A stretch of DNA of 64,000 nucleotides from an uncultured Thermoplasmatales archaeon (GCA_964638155.1 CAZWYI010000008.1:4787-68786); one strand, 5' to 3'. Positions 27,602-57,110 are shown, counted from the first letter of the stretch. A program made the numbers and translations. Notes: generated by a model from the letters alone, not told the origin.

Positions 27602-28471
27602 ATGGAAAAAACAATATTTGGAGTTATACTTGCAGCATTCTTATTAATGTCAGTAAGTTTTATTGCTCCAGTATACGTACAGGCAGCTGAAATAAACATA
27701 AAACAGACTAAAAAAAATATTGGTGAGTTAACAACATCAATTACAGAACATAAAGAATTTGAAGATATATTAAATAATCCAGACCTCGCAAAAATTGTAG
27801 AATCTATATTAGAATCTGGTGCCACAGAAAAAAAAGTAACAGATTACTGGAATACAATAAAAAACCTAGATTCTTTTGAAAAAATATGTACTGAAGAAAT
27901 AACAAATAAAGCAGAAAAAATACAAAACTCAATAGATAAAATATTATCAACTAAATATGATGATGAAGATCAAGATGAAGATGGATTCTATCTAACTATA
28001 GACGAAAACAACATACTATCTATATCTCAAGAATCAAAAGAAAACTCGATATTTTTAGATAGTGATGGATCTATTGAATTATCAGGCCATGAAACTATCA
28101 ATCCTGATATTATGCAAAAGATAAAAGATTTCTTAATAATACTATTTCTTATTGGACTAGGTGCAGCAGTTGGAGTGCTAATTATTGCAGGAGTTTTCTT
28201 TTTACTTCAAACAATAATTGCAGCAATAGCAACAGGACTGGGAACACTAGTAACAGTAATTGTAGGTGTAGCAATAGTTTTTGCCGGAATTGCAGGAGTT
28301 TCAGCAGCAATTACATTTATAATCGATGTCATCGAATTTCTAACAAAATCAGAAGACACAAAAAATAAAACAAAAACTGAAAATGTAAAATCTATGAAAA
28401 CATTAGTAAGAACCTTTATAAGTAAAATTTTTAGTTTACTTAATATGAAGATACAACATGTATTCTTCTAA
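27602..28471 (+). CDS. Secreted/membrane hypothetical protein with a long Gly/Ala-rich hydrophobic hairpin
   Basis: Signal peptide ending VQA; ~65-aa hydrophobic segment; amphipathic C-terminal tail. Confidence 0.65.
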   Translation: MEKTIFGVILAAFLLMSVSFIAPVYVQAAEINIKQTKKNIGELTTSITEHKEFEDILNNPDLAKIVESILESGATEKKVTDYWNTIKNLDSFEKICTEEITNKAEKIQNSIDKILSTKYDDEDQDEDGFYLTIDENNILSISQESKENSIFLDSDGSIELSGHETINPDIMQKIKDFLIILFLIGLGAAVGVLIIAGVFFLLQTIIAAIATGLGTLVTVIVGVAIVFAGIAGVSAAITFIIDVIEFLTKSEDTKNKTKTENVKSMKTLVRTFISKIFSLLNMKIQHVFF

Positions 28472-44988: not shown

Positions 44989-45174
44989 AATTTACAAATT
45001 TTGTATTTTTTTATAGTGTATAAATCTTTTTTATGGAAAATTATTAAATATTTTATTTATTCAACTATGCTCATAAATTTTAAAATATTTATAAAAATCA
45101 TAAGAGACTAAAAAGACAATTCTATTTTAATGAAAAGACTATTTAACTATCGGTTAATAATAAAAAAAATTATT

Positions 45175-45249
45175 GGGCCTGTAGCCTAGTCTGGATAGGG
45201 CGATAGCCTCCTAAGCTATAGATCGCGGGTTCGAATCCCGCCAGGTCCG
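45175..45249 (+). tRNA. tRNA-Arg (anticodon CCT), intronless, CCA not encoded
   Basis: Acceptor GGGCCTG/CAGGTCC; D arm GCCT/GGGC; anticodon stem ATAGC/GCTAT with loop CTCCTAA; T arm GCGGG-TTCGAAT-CCCGC. Confidence 0.97.
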
Positions 45250-45343
45250 TAATAATGATTAACATAATTTTCGTTTGGTTTTTTCCAAACATTTTAAATT
45301 AGTATATAAATAACCACTTACAAGATATTATATTGTGATGTTT

Positions 45344-45913
45344 ATGAAAAAACTGGGAATGTTATTAGTTGTTTTTATGCTTTGTATTATTATTTTAACT
45401 GGTTGTGTTAATAATAAAAAGGAAAACGATGGAAAAAAGGATACAAGTGATGACTTAACAACAAATGATGAAAAATCCGATGATGACGAAGGCCCTGAGG
45501 GAAAAACTGAAAATATAACTGTATCCACAGATAAAGAAACTTATGATATAGGAGAAACAGTAAATATCTCAATTAAAAATAACTTAAATACATCTCTAAA
45601 GATAAGAACGCCAACATATGACGTTCAAAAATATAATAATACTGAATGGACCTTAATGAGAAAATCTGCATATCCTTGTGAATCAAGTTGTGTAATGGGC
45701 ATGATACTCCCTAATTTCACAATAGATCCAAACCAAACATTAGAGTATCAGTGGGACCAAAAAGAGACATGGTGCATATACTCAGAATCCTCACCATGCC
45801 AATCTAAAACAGTTACAATTAATGCCACTACAGGAATTTATCGAATAAAATGTTATATTGAAAATAATGACACGATCTATTATGTTTATTCAGATGAATT
45901 TACAATAATATAA
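45344..45913 (+). CDS. Lipoprotein with an Ig-like domain
   Basis: Lipobox ILTGC; acidic linker; TDKETYDIGETVNISIKN...GIYRI. Confidence 0.75.
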   Translation: MKKLGMLLVVFMLCIIILTGCVNNKKENDGKKDTSDDLTTNDEKSDDDEGPEGKTENITVSTDKETYDIGETVNISIKNNLNTSLKIRTPTYDVQKYNNTEWTLMRKSAYPCESSCVMGMILPNFTIDPNQTLEYQWDQKETWCIYSESSPCQSKTVTINATTGIYRIKCYIENNDTIYYVYSDEFTII

Positions 45914-45914
45914 T

Positions 45915-46004
45915 TTGTTCCAACAGATAGCTGCATACAAGCAAAAAATAGACATTCTGAATGCATGTTTTCTCCTTTTGAGCAGGGGTAACCACCAGGT
46001 CCGT
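45915..46004 (+). repeat. Repeat copy R1, ending in CCAGGTCCGT (tRNA-Arg 3' end)
   Basis: Manual alignment: about 74/92 columns identical to R2. Confidence 0.88.
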
Positions 46005-46247
46005 TAATTTTTAATCAGATTATTTCTTTTTATTTAAAGAAAAATTTTCCATCAGATCGCAGTATTTTATCTTGTTTCTTCTTAATTTAAATTCATAAAA
46101 TCTTATACTCTTTCTGTTATAGAATCTCGTTTAAACCCAGATTGCATATACCGCCATGGTTGGAATAATTACTATTCTAGTTTTTAAGATTATTACTATA
46201 TAGAATATTTATTATTTTATTCCAAAGAAAAAATAAAGATCAAATAT

Positions 46248-48392
46248 TTATAATTGCATATTTCTAAATATTCTTTTCATTAAGTTTTGTATTAGTTGGA
46301 AGATTATATTGTTAAATATTTTATTGTTTTTTGGTGTTGAGAATTTCTGTGTTGCCCATGTGCTTTCAATGTTATATATGTCTTTTGAAATTACTTTGAT
46401 TTTAAATGTATCTCTTTTTGTCCATTTATGTTCAAGTTTAAGTTCATATCCTGAATCATAGGGTCCTTTCCATCCACTGTTTGTACCATCTCCCCAATTT
46501 ACATAGTAATATATTTGATCTCCATCTGGATCATTTGTTTTAAAGCTATATTCATATGTTCTTCTTTTTCTTCCATTGCCTGGCCCATCTATGGTTGGTT
46601 TATCTGGTGGTTTTGATAGATACATCTGCATTGGATCTGAATATTGACTATATCCTGTTTTATCTTTTGCTCTAATTGTTATTTGTATGTGTTGTTTTGA
46701 TGCGAAATTATTTGAGATTGATATATTTTCAATTGTTATTTTTTTATTTGAATTATATTTTCCATAAAGTATGGATTCATCTGTTATTGTATGTCCTGAG
46801 TTATCTTTTCCAGTTATCTTAAATTGATAGTAAACTTTATCATTTTCATTATCATTTGCTATGCAGTTAAAGCTGTATATTCCCCCTGGTTTTCCATATT
46901 CTGGACCATTTATTGTGGGTTTATCTGGTGGTTGATTATTTAATGTTGTAAAATTTAGTCTTTTTCCATTTGCCTCACCTGCTGGATTTTTTATATTTGC
47001 CCAGAAAATATATTTTTTATTTGGTTCTAAACCTGTTATTTCAGTTAATATTTCATCATTTGTGTAAAATGGTTTTTTCCATTCTGTATATTGTTTACTG
47101 CTTCCTTCTTTTTTGTATGTGAATCTTACCTCGCATTCTGATCCTCCATCATTAAATATCCATGCATTTATTTTTGCACTAGTGCTTCCTATCCATGTTG
47201 CATCAATTGTTTCAACTACTGGTAGGTTTATGCTTATTGTTATATTCCATTCTTTATCCTCTGGTAGTCTTTTATTTGTGCCATATGGCCCTTCAAAATA
47301 GAAATAATATTTATGTGTTCCAAGCCCAATGTCTTTACCTTGTATTATTTTTGAGTAATCTGAGTTGCTTCCTGATCCTTCCATCATATATATTTTATCA
47401 TCAATCATTAGATACTTGATACATGGTTCAACTTTATTTGGATGTTTATAATGCACTTTGAAGTTAAATTCTGTTTTATAATCTCCTTCATTTGGTATAA
47501 CACCTTCTTCCCAATCTTGGTATTTAGTTAGAAGCAATGGTTTATATACAATAAATTCAGGGCTACATCCAAGATAATTACCTTCGTAATATATTTTTAT
47601 TTTCCATTCTCCAACTTCATTTGGCGTCCATATATTCCATACACAAAAAGATGTCCAAGATTCTGATATTGAATAAGTGCTTGTATGTTTTATATTATTA
47701 TTTTTATACCATTTCCAGGTTATCTCATGTCCTTTCCATCCGTTTTCTAGTTCTGTATATGAATATATTTGATCATCGAATTTAAACTCTCTTTTTTCAG
47801 GTCCGTGATCATCATATCCTTCTACCCAGTCACATGTTATTGAATTTTTAAAAGTAGGAGTTCCATGAAGCACTTGGAAATTATGTTCAACAAGAAAAAC
47901 TCCATTGCAATAAAATTTTATTTTCCAGTTTCCACCATATTTAGGTGTATACCAAGCCCATGTAATGATATCACCAGAAGATTCTAGAGGATCCCATTCG
48001 CTTTGTCTGTTTACTTCTCCATCATATATATATTCTCTTGATAAAACATCACCTTCTTCTACATTGTTTATTTTTGCAAAAAAATATACTGTCTCACCCT
48101 GAATAAATTCAGTTGTTGGTTCACCATGATCATCATAACTGTTTACCCATTTACACAAAAATGAATATTCAATAGTTGGTGAGTTAGTTATTGGAGCTAT
48201 ATCTTTCGAATATTCAATATAGCTTATTTTATTGTTATTATTTGTATCACTAATATAGCCCATTGCATTAGTTAGAACATTATTTTTCTCTGTTTCATTT
48301 GCTGTTACTATTTTATTTGTTGGTGTTATTATTAGAATATTTGAGAATATAAATAATGATAGAATTATTGTTGTTAGTATTTTTTTCTTCAT
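46248..48392 (-). CDS. Secreted multidomain surface protein (two internal repeats, FnIII-like and PKD-like domains)
   Basis: Signal peptide; duplicated C(K/D)WVxxYDDHG module; PPDKPTIxGP...WGDG; amphipathic tail. Confidence 0.8.
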   Translation of the reverse strand: MKKKILTTIILSLFIFSNILIITPTNKIVTANETEKNNVLTNAMGYISDTNNNNKISYIEYSKDIAPITNSPTIEYSFLCKWVNSYDDHGEPTTEFIQGETVYFFAKINNVEEGDVLSREYIYDGEVNRQSEWDPLESSGDIITWAWYTPKYGGNWKIKFYCNGVFLVEHNFQVLHGTPTFKNSITCDWVEGYDDHGPEKREFKFDDQIYSYTELENGWKGHEITWKWYKNNNIKHTSTYSISESWTSFCVWNIWTPNEVGEWKIKIYYEGNYLGCSPEFIVYKPLLLTKYQDWEEGVIPNEGDYKTEFNFKVHYKHPNKVEPCIKYLMIDDKIYMMEGSGSNSDYSKIIQGKDIGLGTHKYYFYFEGPYGTNKRLPEDKEWNITISINLPVVETIDATWIGSTSAKINAWIFNDGGSECEVRFTYKKEGSSKQYTEWKKPFYTNDEILTEITGLEPNKKYIFWANIKNPAGEANGKRLNFTTLNNQPPDKPTINGPEYGKPGGIYSFNCIANDNENDKVYYQFKITGKDNSGHTITDESILYGKYNSNKKITIENISISNNFASKQHIQITIRAKDKTGYSQYSDPMQMYLSKPPDKPTIDGPGNGRKRRTYEYSFKTNDPDGDQIYYYVNWGDGTNSGWKGPYDSGYELKLEHKWTKRDTFKIKVISKDIYNIESTWATQKFSTPKNNKIFNNIIFQLIQNLMKRIFRNMQL
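46462..46514. repeat. 53-bp near-identical coding segment, second copy at 48646-48698
   Basis: 52/53 identical; encodes IYYYV(N/K)WGDGTNSGWKGP. Confidence 0.9.
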
Positions 48393-48404
48393 ATTTTCCC
48401 TCGA

Positions 48405-51400
48405 TTAATATCTTATTTGTAAAATCTTCTGAAATAGCCGTTCTATTATGTTGAATAATCTTGGACATTTGCTTATTATCTCTAAAAATAGATTTAGGTT
48501 TTTATCTTTGTTTTTAGGAATTTCAACTGACAATGTTGTCCACCCTGTTTCTTGTCCGTTTGAATCTTTTGCTTTTGCTTTAATTGTATATGTATCTCTT
48601 TCTGACCATTTATGTTTAAGAGTTATTTGTTCTCCAGAGTCATATGGTCCTTTCCATCCACTGTTTGTACCATCTCCCCATTTTACATAGTAATATATAT
48701 TATCATTTTCAGCATCTGTCGATACTAAGGTATAGCTGTATTTCACATCCTTTTCGCCTGTTGATGGTCCATTTAGGTTTGGTTTTGTTGGAGGAAAATT
48801 TTGTTCAGATATTTCTATGTTTAATGGATCTGACCATTGACTTGTTTTATATCCATTTGTTGCTCTGACATAAACATTGTAGTTGCCTTCATTTGTCCAT
48901 TTATGTGTTTTTTCAATTATTTCTCCTGAAATTATCCAATCTGTTTCTTCATCAACTTGTTTATCTCCATTCCAATCCCAGAAATATTTTAGTTGTTTGT
49001 TTGGGCTTGGATCTGATGTTGATGTCCTAAATGTGTAATCTCTGTTTATTACTCCTTGTCCTGGCCCGCTTATCATTGGTTTTGGTGGATGTAGCATTTC
49101 TTTTTTGCCTGCTTCGTACATTTCACAGTTTTGTATGCTACCTGTTTTTTCTTTTTCTATTATTATTGCTCCTATTTCATCTCCTGAGATGTCGTATTCC
49201 CATGTAGCTTGTGTTATTTTTTTATCTGTCATATGTAATAGCTGTATATCTTCCCATCCTTGGTTGAATTTTCTTGAATAACATAGGTTTTTTCCATCAC
49301 TCCATGCAACTACTGGTAATGTAGCTGTTGTTTCTTGGAGCACCCCTGTTCCTCCACTGAATAATGCTGTTGAGCTTCCTTGTTTTAGGTTTGAAAATAC
49401 TGTTTCTGGTCCATCTAGTGTTTTTAGTGTTCCTATTGAATCTTCAAAGAGTACATCAACGGTATGATCCTCAGGGTCTTCTTTCATCCATGAAACAGAA
49501 GGTGCAGCGTTATTTAGATAGTTAATTGATGGGTATGCATTTCTTCCCCCGTTTGTTATTTTTATATTATTTGAGGTTGTTGTTAGTTGGTTCATTAGAG
49601 TAAAGGTCTTTATGTATACATCATGATCATCTATATCTGGATTATCATTATTGGTTAGTAATCCGTTTGCATCTGCTACATATGCACATGCTGCTTCAAC
49701 TCCATTATATGATAGACTTACTGGTATTGATACAATGTTGTCATTACTAATTACTTGAGGCATTGTCCATTGGTTTTTATTCCAGAATGATCCATATAAA
49801 AACCTGTCATTTACTGTTATTCCACCTTGAGATATATCTGGATTTGTATCACACATCCATACAACTGCTGCTTTGTTATCACTTGCACTTATCACAGGAT
49901 ATGAATCTGTGGAATGATTTGTTGCACCTATTAGATTTGGTTCAGACCAACTACTTCCATCCCAGTAACAGTATCCTATTTCACTATTTTTTGCTACTTC
50001 TAAAATGGTTTTATCAGCAACTGTACTTTCTAGGCAGTTAAATACACATATTGCATCTCCATTATCTAACAAAGCTATTGAAGGGTTTGATTGAGCTAAA
50101 TTATCATTTGTTACTCTTTTTGGTGTATTCCAACTGTCTGTGTTTTTATTCCATTTTGAAAACCATATATCTAATCCATCTCCATTTGCTCCCTTGCTTA
50201 GATCATCTTGTGTCCATACCATCATTTTTTCCCCATTGCTGTTTCTTGCAATCGATGGATGAGACTTTGGAAACGCATCTTCAAGTAAAAGCCCATCTTC
50301 ATTATTTACCCAGCTCGGGTTTCCATAATTTCTTGGCATGTATTCCCAATTTGAGTTGATACTTGTTGGTGTTTCTGCTTGCATATAATTAGGCCAACTT
50401 GCAGACCACCATTCCCATCTTGCATCTATAACAAAAATTAGTTCTGCATATGCTCCAAAAGAAATTGAAACTTGGAAATCATCATATATACTATCCCCGC
50501 TCTCTGGTGCTTTAAACCGCCAATTCCCTGATACATCTGTATATAGACCCGCGCTTGCAGCACCACATATTCCAACTCCTCCTTTTAACTCGGCTCCAAC
50601 ACCTATTTTCCCATTTACGCTTTTGAAACAATTATTGTTGTATTTATTAGGTGAATTGAGATTAAAATCTACACCAGCATTAAAATATAGATTTGCTTCA
50701 GCACTAACAGGTACAGGTCCTACTGCTGTAGCAAAATAAAAAGCAGGATATTCATATCTTCCATTTAGATAAATGCAGAGTTCCCAGTTAAGATTATCTC
50801 CTACTTTATCAAAATTATATCTAACACCTGAGGATATCGAAAGCGAATCATATGCATCAATATCTACACCTGCACTACCTGTTAGAGTAACTTTATCTTT
50901 ATTTGGATTGTTTGCATATAGATCAATTTTCATAACCATGTCTTCCCAGTTAAATGTTAGATCATAGTCACCGCTGAATTTTTTAAGATTAACCTGACCA
51001 GGTACACTACCAACTATACTAATCAAATCCTGGAAATCATTAAATGAAAATTCAGAATGTAGATGATTTCCATCCCAGTTCTTATCTCCAGCAAGTTTAA
51101 TAGCTGCTTCTACCCAGACAGGTATATCTTTTATTCTTACAGATACAACATCTGTTTGTGATGTTCCCTCTGAATCTGTCACTGTTAATTCTGCAGTATA
51201 TGTATAAGCTGAACTATATGTATGTTTAGGGTCTTCTTTATCAGAAGTGCTTCCATCACCAAATTTCCAATGATAAGTATATGGCCCAACTCCTCCTTTT
51301 GCTTCACCGTTAAATTTAATCCAATAATCGGTAAATCCTTTGTAGTTACCATGAGCATCAGCTTCTAGAACATATACTGTTTTTTCATCACCCCAGTCAC

Positions 51401-52754
51401 TATATGCTCCTTGTTCATCCATAGCTTGTGCTTTAATATTAAAAGAACCTGATGATGACCATTTATGGGTTTTAGTTACTGTTTCACCAGAGTTTACAAA
51501 ATCCGTCCAGGAACTAATATCTCCATCACCCCAATCAAATCGGTATTTTACTCTATCGCCATTTGGATCAATTGTTTTTGTACTAAATTCAGTCAAACTG
51601 TTAATAGCAATAGACAAGGACCCTGATGGTTTATCTGGTGGATTAGGACATGGTTGTAATACTGCTTGTATCCAACCATCACCATTTATTGTGAAACTAG
51701 TTTCAGTTGAATATTCATCATCTATATCTATATTACTGGATACAGTCCATTTTTGAAAAACAAGATCATCCGGTACATTAACCTTTATCGGATATTCATG
51801 TTGATCGTCTACCCATAGTTTTTCGCCATCATAAAAATCATCTAATAAATAATGTATAGTTGTTGCATCTTCAGGGCTTGTCTTTATTTCTAATTCATCT
51901 CTTTTGATGTTTATTATATGTATTTGTTGATCTTCTGAGTCACTAACAATTAAATAATTTGGCCCAATGCATGCTAATCCACAATCTCCTGATTGTGGTA
52001 TATGGCCATTTACTAATCTTGGATTGTCTCTTGAATAATCTAGTGATATTGGTGATACTAATATACCGTTGTCCCATATGTAATTTGTATCCCAAGCAAG
52101 TCCCATATGATAATATGGAAGAGTAGAATTTGTTTTGATAGATTTTTTTACTTTGCCTGTGTCTAAATCTAAAAATAGATAATATCCATTTCCATTTTTT
52201 CTGCAACCATAAATTAAATGTTGGTAATCTGTTGTTAAACCTCCACATATAGTATCTTCACTTCTATCAAAACTCTTAATATTATCTCCAGTATTACTAT
52301 TAATTACATATATTTTTTTTGTTCCATAATCAGATATATAAAGCCGTTTTTCCATGCTGTGAAATGCAACACCTATTGGTTCAATACCTGGTAGATCATA
52401 ACTTTTTATGACTCTCCCTGAGAAAGGATCAACTGCTGTGATTTTATTGTCTTGTTTATCAGCAATCCAAAGAAATTCAGGGAAAAAAACATCAAATCCT
52501 ATCCCTGAGGGCTCAGGACCAGGTGAATTGTAACTTATTTCAATTTCACCATATTCACTATCATCATTATTTGTGTTTACAATTGACGATATTGCTTTTT
52601 GTATTTCTTCATCTGTTATATGATTTGTTATTTTGTTATCTTCCAGTTTTTTTTCATTAACATTTTTTGCTATATTTTTAGCAAATGATGCATTTAGAAT
52701 TGTTACTAGCATCAATAATATTATAAACATAGAAATTATTTTTTTCTTTACCAT
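48405..52754 (-). CDS. 1449-aa secreted surface protein (beta-propeller-like and several PKD-like domains)
   Basis: Signal peptide; PSGIGFD/PIGVAF propeller blades; WKFGDG, WGDG and WNGD PKD motifs; amphipathic tail. Confidence 0.8.
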   Translation of the reverse strand: MVKKKIISMFIILLMLVTILNASFAKNIAKNVNEKKLEDNKITNHITDEEIQKAISSIVNTNNDDSEYGEIEISYNSPGPEPSGIGFDVFFPEFLWIADKQDNKITAVDPFSGRVIKSYDLPGIEPIGVAFHSMEKRLYISDYGTKKIYVINSNTGDNIKSFDRSEDTICGGLTTDYQHLIYGCRKNGNGYYLFLDLDTGKVKKSIKTNSTLPYYHMGLAWDTNYIWDNGILVSPISLDYSRDNPRLVNGHIPQSGDCGLACIGPNYLIVSDSEDQQIHIINIKRDELEIKTSPEDATTIHYLLDDFYDGEKLWVDDQHEYPIKVNVPDDLVFQKWTVSSNIDIDDEYSTETSFTINGDGWIQAVLQPCPNPPDKPSGSLSIAINSLTEFSTKTIDPNGDRVKYRFDWGDGDISSWTDFVNSGETVTKTHKWSSSGSFNIKAQAMDEQGAYSDWGDEKTVYVLEADAHGNYKGFTDYWIKFNGEAKGGVGPYTYHWKFGDGSTSDKEDPKHTYSSAYTYTAELTVTDSEGTSQTDVVSVRIKDIPVWVEAAIKLAGDKNWDGNHLHSEFSFNDFQDLISIVGSVPGQVNLKKFSGDYDLTFNWEDMVMKIDLYANNPNKDKVTLTGSAGVDIDAYDSLSISSGVRYNFDKVGDNLNWELCIYLNGRYEYPAFYFATAVGPVPVSAEANLYFNAGVDFNLNSPNKYNNNCFKSVNGKIGVGAELKGGVGICGAASAGLYTDVSGNWRFKAPESGDSIYDDFQVSISFGAYAELIFVIDARWEWWSASWPNYMQAETPTSINSNWEYMPRNYGNPSWVNNEDGLLLEDAFPKSHPSIARNSNGEKMMVWTQDDLSKGANGDGLDIWFSKWNKNTDSWNTPKRVTNDNLAQSNPSIALLDNGDAICVFNCLESTVADKTILEVAKNSEIGYCYWDGSSWSEPNLIGATNHSTDSYPVISASDNKAAVVWMCDTNPDISQGGITVNDRFLYGSFWNKNQWTMPQVISNDNIVSIPVSLSYNGVEAACAYVADANGLLTNNDNPDIDDHDVYIKTFTLMNQLTTTSNNIKITNGGRNAYPSINYLNNAAPSVSWMKEDPEDHTVDVLFEDSIGTLKTLDGPETVFSNLKQGSSTALFSGGTGVLQETTATLPVVAWSDGKNLCYSRKFNQGWEDIQLLHMTDKKITQATWEYDISGDEIGAIIIEKEKTGSIQNCEMYEAGKKEMLHPPKPMISGPGQGVINRDYTFRTSTSDPSPNKQLKYFWDWNGDKQVDEETDWIISGEIIEKTHKWTNEGNYNVYVRATNGYKTSQWSDPLNIEISEQNFPPTKPNLNGPSTGEKDVKYSYTLVSTDAENDNIYYYVKWGDGTNSGWKGPYDSGEQITLKHKWSERDTYTIKAKAKDSNGQETGWTTLSVEIPKNKDKNLNLFLEIISKCPRLFNIIERLFQKILQIRY

Positions 52755-52896: not shown

Positions 52897-53046
52897 TTAT
52901 TTATTAAATTCTAATGCATGTATTGCACTAAACATAGCTGGTTCATAAAGTTCTTTTTTCAGACTGATTTTTGCTGATTCTAAATAGTTCAAACTTAAAT
53001 TTTAATAATCTTGTATCTTATCAATTGATCTTTTATCCTGCCTCAT
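52897..53046 (-). pseudogene. Truncated HEPN toxin with an in-frame TAA
   Basis: MRQDKRSIDKIQDY*NLSLNYLESAKISLKKELYEPAMFSAIHALEFNK*; ATGA overlap with the MNT gene; matches the HEPN N-terminal helix pattern. Confidence 0.7.
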
Positions 53047-53675
53047 TGATTACCCTTCTCATATAATATAACACCGTTTTCTTTTATTTGTTTTTGTAAG
53101 GATTTATCCATATTTTCATATTCTTTCATATTTTTGAAGAGTGGTTTTCCCTGATGATTGCATTTATTTGAAGCTGCAGCAATTAAATCCCGGATTTCGT
53201 TTTTTTGTTTTTTTGACCAAGATTCTTTTAAAAATAATAAATCGATATCAGATTTTCTATGGGCCGCTCCTTGAGCAACAGATCCATATAATATTATCAT
53301 ATAGTTTTCAAAATCTACATTTTTTATTTCTTTAAGATAGTTTTTTACTTCTTTCCGGAATTCTTTTTGTTCAATATATCCAATATACAAATTGTTAGCA
53401 TCTATTGGTTCATCTGCCTTGAAACCTATTATTGATTTATTTATTGTATCTATTGAAAAAACTATTTGGAATTCTTGTAAACTATATCTTATTGTTCTTC
53501 CAACAGAATTTCGTTCATAGGTTCCTTTTATTATGTTTTGCTCTTCTAGTTTTTTTAAATGTTTAGATATTGCTGGTTTGCTAATTCCGATCACTGCAGA
53601 TATTTCGGGGAGTGTTTTATCATTCTGAACTAGTAGTTCTATAATTCGTTTTTCGTATTTATTTAGCAATTCCAT
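53043..53675 (-). CDS. ArsR/MarR-type HTH fused to a minimal nucleotidyltransferase (MNT antitoxin-like)
   Basis: TLPEISAVIGISKPAISKHLKKLE; LYGSVAQG...SDIDL. Confidence 0.88.
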   Translation of the reverse strand: MELLNKYEKRIIELLVQNDKTLPEISAVIGISKPAISKHLKKLEEQNIIKGTYERNSVGRTIRYSLQEFQIVFSIDTINKSIIGFKADEPIDANNLYIGYIEQKEFRKEVKNYLKEIKNVDFENYMIILYGSVAQGAAHRKSDIDLLFLKESWSKKQKNEIRDLIAAASNKCNHQGKPLFKNMKEYENMDKSLQKQIKENGVILYEKGNQ

Positions 53676-53746: not shown

Positions 53747-53835
53747 TTGTTCCAAATAGATAGCTTCATACAAACAAAAAATTGATGTTTTGAATGCATT
53801 TCTCCTTTTGAACATGATTAAACTGCCAGGTCCGT
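53747..53835 (+). repeat. Repeat copy R2; GCCAGGTCCGTA matches the tRNA 3' end plus flank (12 bp)
   Basis: Manual alignment to R1. Confidence 0.88.
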
Positions 53836-53902
53836 ATTTTTTTCTGTATGCAAAATCATGATGTTTAATATTATCAAAAGAAATTGTATCTGATTTTTAA
53901 TT

Positions 53903-54000: not shown

Positions 54001-56988
54001 TTATTGATTCCTTTTTCTTCTATAGAAAATCAGTCCAATAAATACAGAGAAAAATACTGCAATAACTCCAAAACCAGGTGTATCACTTAACTCATCTGAA
54101 GAAGTATTATCCTGATTTTGATCATCAGATTCATCACTAGTTGAAAATGACCCTGTTGCTGAACTTGTGGCCCATTCATCAGGAGTAACAACCATTTTTT
54201 CATTCGCATCCATTGAAAAATCACCCTTTGATTCAGGAATATACTCTATTTGAGGATTATTATCAAGTGATTCTGTGCTCTTTGTTATTGCTGTAAATGT
54301 AAACGGGGAATCAAAAGTTTCTACAACGAGATCATCATAATCTTCAGAAACATAAAGCTCTATTTCTGCTCCTTCATCATTCTGACCACTTGTAAAAATA
54401 TATTCCCTGCCTACAAATGGTGAATTATAGAATTCTTTTACAAAATGGATAGAATACTCCAGTATATCACCTTCACTGACTTTTGTTACATTTCCTCGTT
54501 TAAATCTAACCGAGTGATCAGTAGCCACATCCGATGTTGAAAGTGGTGTAAAGGTTATCTGATCGGCAGTATCTTTTGTGGTGGTCACATTCTCAAAACT
54601 ATAAAATGAGGTATTGTGCCAAAGCATCAATGAATAAACGCCTGAATCACTTTCAGATTCAACAGTACTTTCTGTGTGAATTGTTAAAGAAACATTACTT
54701 GGTAGCATGAACATATCAACGGTTCCATCAGCTCCATTTGATTCGAAAATTGGTGCTGAATAGGGTATTTCAGAGATAATTTCTCCGTTCACATATCCTG
54801 TTTTTCTTCCAGATGAACCCTCAGCATAAAATGATGCATCACCTGAGCCATACATTAGTGTCTGCATTGGATCAGGTAGTTTTTGATCCGTGATACCTAC
54901 AGTTGTTGGAGTTGTGCCAATGTAATTTATAGAACTAGGGTTACCTATAACTGTTTCATATGGTGTGTAATAAATATTTTCATTCCATGTAGAAGTACTG
55001 TTCCATTCATAGGACCACCAGCCATCCCTAGACCATCCATCCTCTCCAAAAACAATGAAGGGGTATTGATTAAAATTCGTAAAATCTGTTGAATCATGAG
55101 TGCTAACATATGCATGGTTTGGATCATAGATAAAGACATTATAACTATCGCCTCCAAGAGGAACTACTCTCCAAGGCACAACCGCATGACCTTTGCTTCC
55201 TTCAAAAATTGAGATAATCCCCGGTGTTCCTGCATTGAGGTCATCGATGATATCATCAAGGATGTCATCAATAAATGGATGTAGTCCCGATCCAGATCGT
55301 TCAGGTTGAAGTAGATATTGAGCGGATTTCAAGAGAAGTCGATGGAAACTGTATTGTCCTGCTTGCCGGGCGTAATAATAAGGCCAGGTATTATTCCAAT
55401 TCTCCCTCTCAAGATCATCGATGCTAACAGCAGTTGGTTGAATTAAATTCGCATAAAGACCTGATGACCCATCAGCTAGTTCAAGAGATAACGCACACAT
55501 ACCATAACATTGACCTCTACGCCCTCCTTCTCTCACCTTATTCTGAAACAGGTAATCGGCATGAGGTTTTCTCCAACCATGTTCCTCGTTCCACCATATC
55601 TCATCACCAAAGATAGATTCCATCATACTCCAACTCCAAGTATGATTCTCATCACATCCCCAATTTGCAAAAGGAAGACCCCAATACCATTGCCATGGTG
55701 CACCAATTTCGATATTTTCTCCTTCTACTCTTGTGGATCGGTCTTCTGTATCATATGCCCTTACTGAATATCGTAATGTGCAAGGAGCAGAGCAATCATC
55801 AAGGATGTCAACACCGTTGTATACTGTGATCGATCGTTCAACATCTGTTTGTGGCGGATCAATCGTGAAATCAACGGGCATTCCATCAACAGTGATCGTC
55901 ATGAAATCAATTCCATCTGGATCAGTTGCTGTTGCCGTGACATCTATTCGCTGTCCATCCATTGGAAGCAAACTATGTTTTGCTGGTATAGCATTATCCT
56001 CTTCGAATTCAATATCAATAGTTACAACAGGATCACTTCCTGTTCCTTGTACCTCGATATCGAAAGTTTCCCCTACAGGGGCTTCGCTTCCTTGATCATC
56101 AGCAAAAATGCTGAAGGTATACGTTCCGGTGGTTAGAACCTCAGAATAGTTACAGGATAATGTTGTTTGGGTTCCTTCGGCCTCACAATATTCAACTTCA
56201 TCTCCGCCTTTTTTAATAGAAATATATTGCATGGCAACATCATCTGTTGCAGTTACTGAGATTATTACGGTATCACCTGATTGTGGATTTTCAGGATTGA
56301 CCGTATATTCTATCTCGCAAGGTGTTGTATCCTCCGTTGGTTCTTCAGGAGGATCTGGTTCTTCTCCAGTTGAAGTTTCATAAGTTATCTGTAACCGAGG
56401 CCTGTAAGCCGCATCATTATCACTGTAAAATACATAAGAGAAGAATTGATCATATTGCTCATTAACAAACAAAACTCCATAATTTTGACTTGGAGTATCA
56501 ACCCAATCTTCAACTAACGTTAATGCATTAAAATCATACGGACCATCTGTTCCCACATTCTTTTGATCAATTGTTGAAGAGACAGAAGGCTTGTTATTCC
56601 AATTTAACGTATCCTCATTCCAAGATGTTGTTGCCTTTCTCATCTCTGTTAATGCATTATCCGAACCATATTCTGAACACCATAAACGAATTTTTGCACT
56701 TTTAATAACTGCATCAGACGGAAGATCAATGTTATTGAACTTTACATAGAACTGATAATCATTATTGAACTCGTCTTGCCCAAGTATCAGATTATATTTA
56801 TCCATGCCTGTGTTGTAATTCATTGATGGTAATCCTCGATAGACATAACTTGATTCATCGGAGTAAAAATATGCAGTATACGTCACTGGTTCCGATGGCG
56901 GAGCTGATTTTACAGATATACTGAAAACAGGTATTATCATAACAATTGTTAATATAAAGCAGATTATTTTAGGCACATAGTTCTTCAT
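54001..56988 (-). CDS. PGF-CTERM surface protein with a DNRLRE-like domain, Ig-like domains and a putative papain-like Cys-His-Asp domain
   Basis: GGAGG RBS before ATG 56988; TLNWNNKP...RPRLQITY; GQCYGM, GHAV, YDPN; TPGF-TM-RRKR. Confidence 0.8.
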   Translation of the reverse strand: MKNYVPKIICFILTIVMIIPVFSISVKSAPPSEPVTYTAYFYSDESSYVYRGLPSMNYNTGMDKYNLILGQDEFNNDYQFYVKFNNIDLPSDAVIKSAKIRLWCSEYGSDNALTEMRKATTSWNEDTLNWNNKPSVSSTIDQKNVGTDGPYDFNALTLVEDWVDTPSQNYGVLFVNEQYDQFFSYVFYSDNDAAYRPRLQITYETSTGEEPDPPEEPTEDTTPCEIEYTVNPENPQSGDTVIISVTATDDVAMQYISIKKGGDEVEYCEAEGTQTTLSCNYSEVLTTGTYTFSIFADDQGSEAPVGETFDIEVQGTGSDPVVTIDIEFEEDNAIPAKHSLLPMDGQRIDVTATATDPDGIDFMTITVDGMPVDFTIDPPQTDVERSITVYNGVDILDDCSAPCTLRYSVRAYDTEDRSTRVEGENIEIGAPWQWYWGLPFANWGCDENHTWSWSMMESIFGDEIWWNEEHGWRKPHADYLFQNKVREGGRRGQCYGMCALSLELADGSSGLYANLIQPTAVSIDDLERENWNNTWPYYYARQAGQYSFHRLLLKSAQYLLQPERSGSGLHPFIDDILDDIIDDLNAGTPGIISIFEGSKGHAVVPWRVVPLGGDSYNVFIYDPNHAYVSTHDSTDFTNFNQYPFIVFGEDGWSRDGWWSYEWNSTSTWNENIYYTPYETVIGNPSSINYIGTTPTTVGITDQKLPDPMQTLMYGSGDASFYAEGSSGRKTGYVNGEIISEIPYSAPIFESNGADGTVDMFMLPSNVSLTIHTESTVESESDSGVYSLMLWHNTSFYSFENVTTTKDTADQITFTPLSTSDVATDHSVRFKRGNVTKVSEGDILEYSIHFVKEFYNSPFVGREYIFTSGQNDEGAEIELYVSEDYDDLVVETFDSPFTFTAITKSTESLDNNPQIEYIPESKGDFSMDANEKMVVTPDEWATSSATGSFSTSDESDDQNQDNTSSDELSDTPGFGVIAVFFSVFIGLIFYRRKRNQ

Positions 56989-57110
56989 TTTTTTAACCTC
57001 CCGATAAAATATTTTATTCTCCGTGGTGTAAATTAACAAGTATTATTAACGGTTTCTTTTTATTTTGCATACATAGTAATGTTTTAAAACAAGATAATTG
57101 GTCTTTATTT

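Follow-up and report, generated by a model that had tools for sequence, protein, structure and literature searches.

Two adjacent genes of an uncultured Thermoplasmatales archaeon encode large secreted proteins, of 714 and 1449 amino acids (aa), that both carry a diverged copy of a short two-helix C-terminal tail, one which Marine Benthic Group D (Thermoprofundales) archaea carry on hundreds of their exported proteins, many of them proteolytic enzymes, and which fits none of the sorting families described in Pfam or NCBIfam. The genes occupy positions 46248 to 52754 of a 64,000-nucleotide stretch (GCA_964638155.1, CAZWYI010000008.1:4787-68786, here referred to as the window), which lies on contig C8 of a 2.15-Mb genome with a G+C content of 30.6% and a completeness of 94%. 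The archaea of Marine Benthic Group D are among the most abundant in marine sediments and are thought to degrade buried protein by means of exported peptidases. Genes for C25 and PKD-domain peptidases rank with the most highly transcribed of the group (PMC6461988). Which organism receives the products depends on whether such enzymes are released or stay on the cell, a question that matters for how carbon turnover in the subsurface is modeled. We favor, with no more than middling confidence, a reading of the tail as a non-covalent, cleavage-free surface-retention module, in which a proline-kinked amphipathic hairpin and a polybasic hinge would lie at the membrane surface.

Two Secreted Proteins With a Shared C-Terminal Tail

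Both genes lie on the minus strand, with the following features (AF2, AlphaFold2; ORF, open reading frame; pLDDT, predicted local distance difference test):

46248-48392, minus strand: gene for the 714-aa secreted protein, an orphan passenger followed by a terminal PKD domain and the tail (ORF and translation)
46251-46337, minus strand: tail of the 714-aa protein, TPKNNKIFNNIIFQLIQNLMKRIFRNMQL, hinge and amphipathic helix (hydrophobic moment 0.67)
46338-46628, minus strand: terminal PKD domain of the 714-aa protein (46% identity to its counterpart in the 1449-aa protein), covered by DNA repeat D1 (78%)
48303-48392, minus strand: signal-peptide-like N-terminus of the 714-aa protein, MKKKILTTIILSLFIFSNILIITP... 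(basic, then hydrophobic segment)
48405-52754, minus strand: gene for the 1449-aa secreted protein, whose N-terminal part is weakly beta-propeller-like and which also has three PKD domains and the tail (ORF, Pfam, NCBIfam)
48408-48521, minus strand: tail of the 1449-aa protein (independent tail profile, AF2)
48411-48464, minus strand: predicted tail helix 2 of the 1449-aa protein, PRLFNIIERLFQKILQIR, beginning at the conserved proline (AF2, residues 108-125)
48468-48503, minus strand: predicted tail helix 1 of the 1449-aa protein, KNLNLFLEIISK (AF2, residues 95-106 of the 126-aa model)
48522-48785, minus strand: terminal PKD domain of the 1449-aa protein (AF2 pLDDT 97-98; match to PDB 4xed)
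52674-52754, minus strand: signal-peptide-like N-terminus of the 1449-aa protein, MVKKKIISMFIILLMLVTILNASFAKN (basic, then hydrophobic segment)

The 714-aa protein ends in ...STPKNNKIFNNIIFQLIQNLMKRIFRNMQL and the 1449-aa protein in ...IPKNKDKNLNLFLEIISKCPRLFNIIERLFQKILQIRY. To gauge chance resemblance, a profile made from the tails of other genomes only was ranked over 2075 C-termini of the window's genome. The tail of the 1449-aa protein came out at rank 6/2075 (E 1.3e-5), and this protein has the elements that define the tail family, namely a signal peptide, the hinge, a helix, the kink (residues C-P-R-L-F), a second helix and a significant profile match. The tail of the 714-aa protein was placed at rank 21/2075 with an E-value of 0.13, which makes it marginal by tail sequence alone, and it has no proline kink; the PKD domain, the PKNN hinge, the length and the amphipathic helix do fit. 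It would appear to be a weak, degenerate and marginal member, whose place in the family depends on the PKD domain, hinge and helix combined.

Pfam detected PKD domains alone in the 1449-aa protein and gave no match in the 714-aa protein, and the NCBIfam scan placed no C-terminal sorting model on either of them. A full-length homolog of the 714-aa protein was absent among 5.8 billion proteins, the matches being to its PKD part. Besides the PKD domain, one internal module of its passenger (…HKYYFYFE…) recurs among these 5.8 billion proteins, and the partial relatives of the protein (M14, papain-like and beta-propeller proteins) all end in variants of the tail.

Layout and Carriers of the Tail in the Genome

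A pattern search of C-termini recovered the same ending on many further proteins of the window's genome. When a profile of the last 40 residues was built, as the preliminary description of this DNA had suggested, it converged on 18 strict members with E-values below 1e-3, so that the tail is not limited to the two paralogs, and looser versions were found on ~25 further signal-peptide proteins. The common layout starts with a hinge, usually P-K-x-K, followed by ~8 residues, a helix, a near-invariant proline that usually stands in (E/D)-R-F-P, and a second helix running to the C-terminus. This proline is the sole column with at least 90% conservation in alignment A1, and tail length varies from 27 to 42 residues, with a mode of 33. 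An equal occurrence on cytoplasmic proteins, which would speak against a signal for exported proteins, was not seen: all 16 of the N-terminally complete core members have signal-peptide-like starts (Fisher p ~7e-9), the remaining two of the 18 being cut by contig ends. A lipobox is present in 1 of 42 tail proteins and another membrane-span-like segment in 2 of 42, so most tail proteins are without any other anchor.

In this genome the passengers include C25 gingipain-like peptidases, a C13/C14 caspase-like peptidase, DUF11 proteins, proteins with PKD domains only and proteins without any Pfam match, and overall they comprise C25, C13/C14, M14 and C1A peptidases, beta-propellers, DUF11 proteins and orphans. 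The carriers of the tail had at first been taken to be unrelated; their passengers are indeed varied, but most tails follow the same PKD-type domain. Tails without a recognizable PKD domain are found on a 180-aa protein (C36:7750) and a 229-aa protein (C6:104), and that of C10:1783 stands directly behind a C25 domain. Among ~15 close C25 paralogs, 9 end right behind the catalytic domain and 6 are tailed (2 directly, 4 after a PKD domain), which indicates that the tail is a modular addition; it splits the exported proteome into a tailed and an untailed set. The varied passengers, together with an occurrence here almost wholly on signal-peptide proteins, uphold the earlier proposal of a lineage-specific C-terminal signal on exported proteins.

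Distribution, Canonical Form and Selection

A profile search of 1.84 billion representative proteins returned 58 matches at E ≤1e-3, all of them within 11 residues of the C-terminus. The tail has two canonical forms, MPKNKxFNFNFNLLSWLFERFPNAFPILRHLLGL, at the very C-terminus, and MPKNKAINPFLLFLERLIERFPILEQILQPIYDKL... The profile from the window's genome matched 73 of the 118 genomes of the order and 0 of 266 Thermoplasmatota genomes of other families, and a broader profile matched 79 of the 118, with ~780 tails in total and a maximum of at least 64 in one genome.

An exact DNA pattern (MPKNK, 9-16 codons, ERFP) was also scanned against one genome per species in 185,579 species, yielding 70 loci. 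Fifty-eight are from assemblies named Thermoplasmatota, Thermoplasmatales or Thermoplasmata and are in frame, all but one with a stop 29-43 codons past the M of MPKNK; in a tally of 57 such matches the stops fell 29-53 codons past it, 56 of them at 29-43. The 12 bacterial matches consist of 11 out-of-frame chance occurrences and one that is in frame but unlike a tail. An occurrence of the motif in further archaeal phyla was not borne out, as tail-like in-frame matches in these species genomes were found in metagenome-assembled genomes of Thermoplasmatota only.

Some of the genomes scored as tail-free still hold the PKD domain 21-50 times. Three of the tail-free genomes (G015, G029 and G076) carry variant tails without KNK or without ERFP, exemplified by MPYQPSWNLLQRLFDRFPHAFP... 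of G015, which has no KNK hinge, and the presence/absence vector obtained with the profile is therefore too noisy. In other genomes scored as tail-free, a different C-terminal domain replaces the tail.

A second recurrent C-terminal module is a beta-type domain of ~100-120 residues with weak similarity to CARDB (18.8 bits). It always lies within 2-4 residues of the C-terminus, and its last element is a hydrophobic strand (…LLLFFITGLE, …FIFLFWVSIKNQ). The module occurs in G000 at C48:704-5907 (three genes), C15:21517-21933 and C24:11424-13946, and also in loci L095, L099, L100, L104, L111, L114 and L121; in G030 and G076 it stands behind PKD in place of the helical tail of other genomes. As such it could be an alternative domain for retention or sorting.

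Selection was assessed by codon position in 38 of 39 canonical tails with the stop at codon 34. Pairwise identity was 0.74, 0.88 and 0.62 at the first, second and third codon positions of these tails, and 0.35 just past the stop codon; the corresponding values for the 60 bases upstream were 0.53, 0.53 and 0.39. This pattern, and the drop past the stop, show a constraint at the level of the protein, with the tail more strongly affected than the preceding domain. At the protein level, canonical tails and the 85 residues before them had identities of 0.57 vs. 0.42 within genomes and 0.50 vs. 0.42 between genomes. Polar positions E, R and N and both prolines are fixed in the canonical tails, and the distance to the C-terminus is near constant. 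The tails of the window's genome have a mutual identity of 0.21, vs. 0.24 for the preceding 85 residues. They are degenerate, having kept the hinge, the kink and the amphipathic character and lost most of the canonical sequence.

Physical Character and Predicted Structure

The tails are non-transmembrane, with a maximum Kyte-Doolittle 19-residue mean (KD19) of 0.15-1.13, and their mean hydrophobic moment is 0.53, compared with 0.37 in other C-termini (p ~2e-7). The best-window Wimley-White interfacial energy was -0.3 kcal/mol for the tails of this genome and -3.8 kcal/mol for canonical tails, while the mean of other non-transmembrane C-termini was +5.6 kcal/mol (p ~1e-18).

The last 126 residues of the 1449-aa protein were modeled with AF2 from 54 aligned sequences. 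The model had a pLDDT of 93 (97-98 in the beta-sandwich, ~69 in the hinge and linker, and 83-90 in the helices) and placed helices at residues 95-106 and 108-125, with a break at the proline. The best match of the terminal domain in the PDB was 4xed (48% identity, root-mean-square deviation 0.8 A), the PKD domain of an M14-like peptidase from the single-cell genome of Thermoplasmatales archaeon SCGC AB-540-F20. The last domain of the 1449-aa protein is thus a true PKD fold, and 4xed represents the same domain as precedes the tail, from the same archaeal group. Unlike the window protein, the crystallized construct stops at ...TLEVTMPK, i.e., at the first residues of the hinge, from which it follows that the PKD domain folds without the tail and that the solved structure is silent on the tail itself, which is not known from any structure. 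The construct boundary chosen by the depositors coincides with the start of the tail, and 4xed is the sole solved relative of the terminal domain. Taken with the ORFs and the raised hydrophobic moment, the AF2 model with its 4xed match and the KD19 range confirm the preliminary description, according to which both large proteins end in a PKD domain, PKN(K/N) and a non-transmembrane helix.

Comparison With Known Sorting and Anchoring Systems

A match to an already described sorting family, which would undo the case for a new signal, was not found. Eight isolated tails gave no Pfam or NCBIfam match at E ≤10, and scans of whole proteins were also without a sorting model; as a positive control for the CTERM models, the PGF tail of a protein encoded near the tail genes was matched. 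Strings of the tail had no relevant match in the literature searched. With no Pfam or NCBIfam model found for it, the tail is a new C-terminal marker for annotators. The neighbor used as control is the following:

54001-57039, minus strand: 1012-aa surface protein with a PGF-type C-terminal anchor, …TPGFGVIAVFFSVFIGLIFYRRKRNQ (Heimdall-CTERM 22.6 bits; DNRLRE domain)

The PGF-CTERM/ArtA system and its kin (PEF-, PEP-, LPXTG- and GlyGly-CTERM) resemble the tail in that a short C-terminal signal is found on many exported surface proteins of one lineage. In contrast to these, the tail is without a signature motif, a transmembrane helix and an Arg/Lys end, and its basic residues precede the helices. 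It has no PGF motif, a KD19 of at most 1.13, and neither a matching model nor a known cognate enzyme, and it coexists here with a real PGF-CTERM/ArtA system. The archaeosortase ArtA is encoded in the genome (TIGR04125, G000:C44:5958-6683, 118.9 bits vs. a cut-off of 75) along with ~10 TPGFE-type tails; ArtA accounts for those and not for the PKNK tail. Given the PGF tail of the neighbor and the presence of ArtA, the contrast with PGF-CTERM anchors that had been drawn initially is real. Likewise, the lack of a membrane span and the position of the basic residues before the helices separate the tail from the tripartite signals of sortases and exosortases (LPXTG, PEP-CTERM, GlyGly-CTERM).

In Bacteroidota, the C-terminal domain of the type IX system, which is served by PorU, also marks C25 gingipain-type peptidases and other exported proteins for the surface in C25-rich genomes. 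That domain is a beta-sandwich of 80-100 residues found in two-membrane organisms, whereas the tail consists of ~30 helical residues in an archaeon, and the likeness implies no type IX genes. With its 27-42 residues, predicted to be helical, and no match to the model, the tail is not a Por_Secre_tail (TIGR04183/PF18962).

The PBP5/PBP6-type anchor of E. coli (PMC2909392) shares with the tail, as we read it, a Sec-exported enzyme and a short C-terminal amphipathic helix at the outer face of the cytoplasmic membrane, with basic residues nearby and with neither a membrane span nor cleavage. The tail differs in having two helices and a conserved proline kink and sequence, in its occurrence on dozens of different proteins per genome, and in its archaeal host with ether lipids; the likeness is one of functional class, not of a homologous family. 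For the wider class of in-plane amphipathic C-terminal anchors, the sequence features are present (signal peptides, hydrophobic moment, Wimley-White energy, AF2 helices), with membrane binding itself predicted. Anchoring through transmembrane segments, lipids and protein-protein contacts is listed in a review of archaeal surface biogenesis (PMC6098224), but an amphipathic anchor is not, such that a tail at the membrane surface would add a mode of anchoring absent from that review. The main genomic paper on Marine Benthic Group D never uses the word 'anchor' (PMC6461988).

A Putative Surface-Retention Module and Its Alternatives

As a surface-retention module, the tail may work as follows. The passenger would be exported by Sec via the N-terminal signal peptide, and its last 27-42 residues would fold into two short helices joined at the conserved (E/D)-x-F-P kink, behind a flexible and usually basic PKNK hinge. 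The aromatic amphipathic hairpin would then settle in the head-group region on the outer face of the cytoplasmic membrane, with the lysines against the lipid surface, and the passenger (peptidases, adhesin-like proteins, orphan domains) would stay on the cell and not diffuse into the sediment. A non-covalent anchor at the membrane surface agrees with where the tail lies, with the lack of another anchor, with a composition that is both amphipathic and aromatic, with the basic hinge and with the tail's modular use on peptidases. The data show the position, composition and distribution of the tail, its predicted helices and selection on the protein; we infer both membrane binding and the absence of cleavage. 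Judged from sequence, a cleavage-free anchor would fit at least as well as a signal read by a processing enzyme.

Some of the observations weigh against a retention module of this type. Conservation in the canonical genomes is higher in the tail than in the preceding domain, the polar residues being fixed and the distance to the C-terminus near constant. A simple lipid-binding helix, like the one in PBP5, is not known to need a sequence constraint of this kind, and canonical tails that are conserved in their specific sequence and fixed in length suggest a protein partner. Furthermore, the interfacial energy of the tails in the window's own genome is only ~0 before helix formation is counted.

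The preliminary description had assumed a processing enzyme. In that case the tail would be a true sorting signal, and a dedicated enzyme would cut at or near the hinge and attach the passenger covalently to lipid, glycan or the surface layer, which we consider unlikely. The greater conservation of the tail than of its passenger, with polar residues and length fixed, would be expected of such a signal, as would the high copy number, with dozens of tails in a genome and a maximum of at least 64, a feature also of PEP-CTERM and of type IX C-terminal domains. However, the tail has no transmembrane helix or terminal basic cluster and is in this respect unlike the signals of sortases, exosortases, archaeosortases and rhombosortases, and the KNK hinge is absent from the tails of some genera, such as that of G015. 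Neighbor clustering also revealed no enzyme that recurs beside the 42 tail genes of this genome or beside 87 tail genes in 58 foreign loci; the clusters consist only of C25 peptidases, small membrane proteins and further proteins that are secreted. With no recurring neighbor enzyme and no usable contrast of presence and absence between genomes, no evidence for the assumed enzyme was found.

A particular candidate for the sorting machine is found among the C25 peptidases. In the bacterial type IX system the sortase, PorU, is of the C25 type, and C25 enzymes cut after Lys or Arg. By analogy, a PorU-like member of the expanded C25 family could act at the PKNK hinge, remove the tail and fix hundreds of exported proteins covalently to the cell envelope of Marine Benthic Group D, a scenario to which we give a low probability. 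Untailed C25 peptidases are among the commonest neighbors of tail genes (12 proteins in 11 loci), which favors it, but Peptidase_C25 is present in all 118 genomes of the order, whether or not the tail was detected, and so does not discriminate; for the same reason the search for C25 as tail partner by presence and absence was uninformative and was given up. Most of the 118 genomes have at least 15 matches to Peptidase_C25, and 0 of 14 control genomes have any; the C25 family of the order is a very large lineage-specific expansion.

The sequence-specific conservation of the canonical tail would also be explained by a docking peptide, i.e., by non-covalent binding either among the tails themselves or to a conserved protein of the surface (S-layer subunit or membrane receptor), in a scaffold like that of dockerin and cohesin. 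Binding to other anchored proteins is a known archaeal strategy (PMC6098224), and the tail drifts in sequence among genera while its layout stays constant, as expected under co-evolution with a partner. We nevertheless find docking doubtful, in that no candidate receptor was found and the tails of this genome, at 21% mutual identity, are hard to reconcile with a single binding site. Small proteins with a signal peptide and membrane span near the tail genes, which would include the protein at 27602-28471 described below, were considered as a receptor family and dropped since they share similarity in the signal peptide only. Three genomes (G053, G054 and G056) hold dozens of small ORFs of ~100-230 aa that share a strongly conserved signal-peptide sequence (MNKKILIGSIISVVILILVSFTSVVG-like) and differ in the remainder, and this conservation is unusually high for a signal peptide.

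That the tail has no function of its own, as a structural extension inherited with PKD among paralogs or through DNA-level conservation in cassette-bounding repeats, is very improbable: the same PKD-type domain does stand before most tails, and both genes do lie in an insert bounded by copies of a tRNA-Arg 3' end, but tails exist without a PKD domain, the PKD domain was crystallized without the tail, conservation is strongest at second codon positions and stops at the stop codon, and the DNA repeat in the window spans the PKD domain and not the tail.

A Third Protein of the Window

27602-28471, plus strand: third protein, not a member of the tail family (4.3 bits; rank 91/2075 and E 23 with the foreign-tail profile)

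This protein had been described as ending in a looser version of the tail, a view that its rank and E-value do not support; it is a multi-pass membrane protein. Its signal peptide is followed by a helical region of acidic character and by a block of ~73 hydrophobic residues (2-3 membrane spans); then come a lysine-rich basic stretch and a helix, and this final helix is probably the cytoplasmic end of the membrane protein. Together with a paralog (G000 C4:53911-54777), it forms a two-member family of ~289 aa with near-identical signal peptides. Both proteins have the acidic helical region, 2-3 spans and a basic amphipathic C-terminal helix, and one copy is in a surface-gene island.

Genomic Context of the Tail Genes

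The two tail genes lie in an insert adjoining tRNA-Arg(CCT) at 45174-45250. The 3' end of this tRNA gene (CCAGGTCCGT; ...CGCCAGGTCCGTAAT) recurs as CACCAGGTCCGTTAAT at ~45993 (45990-46012) and as TGCCAGGTCCGTATTT at ~53824 (53821-53843). The first unit bracketed in this way contains a gene for a small secreted protein (45335-45913), and the second contains the two tail genes and a helix-turn-helix/nucleotidyltransferase gene (53043-53675). These units look like cassettes bounded by attachment sites, with no integrase in the stretch. Tail genes are clustered elsewhere as well, with 87 tail proteins in 58 loci of at most 8 kb, and appear to belong to variable surface-gene islands.

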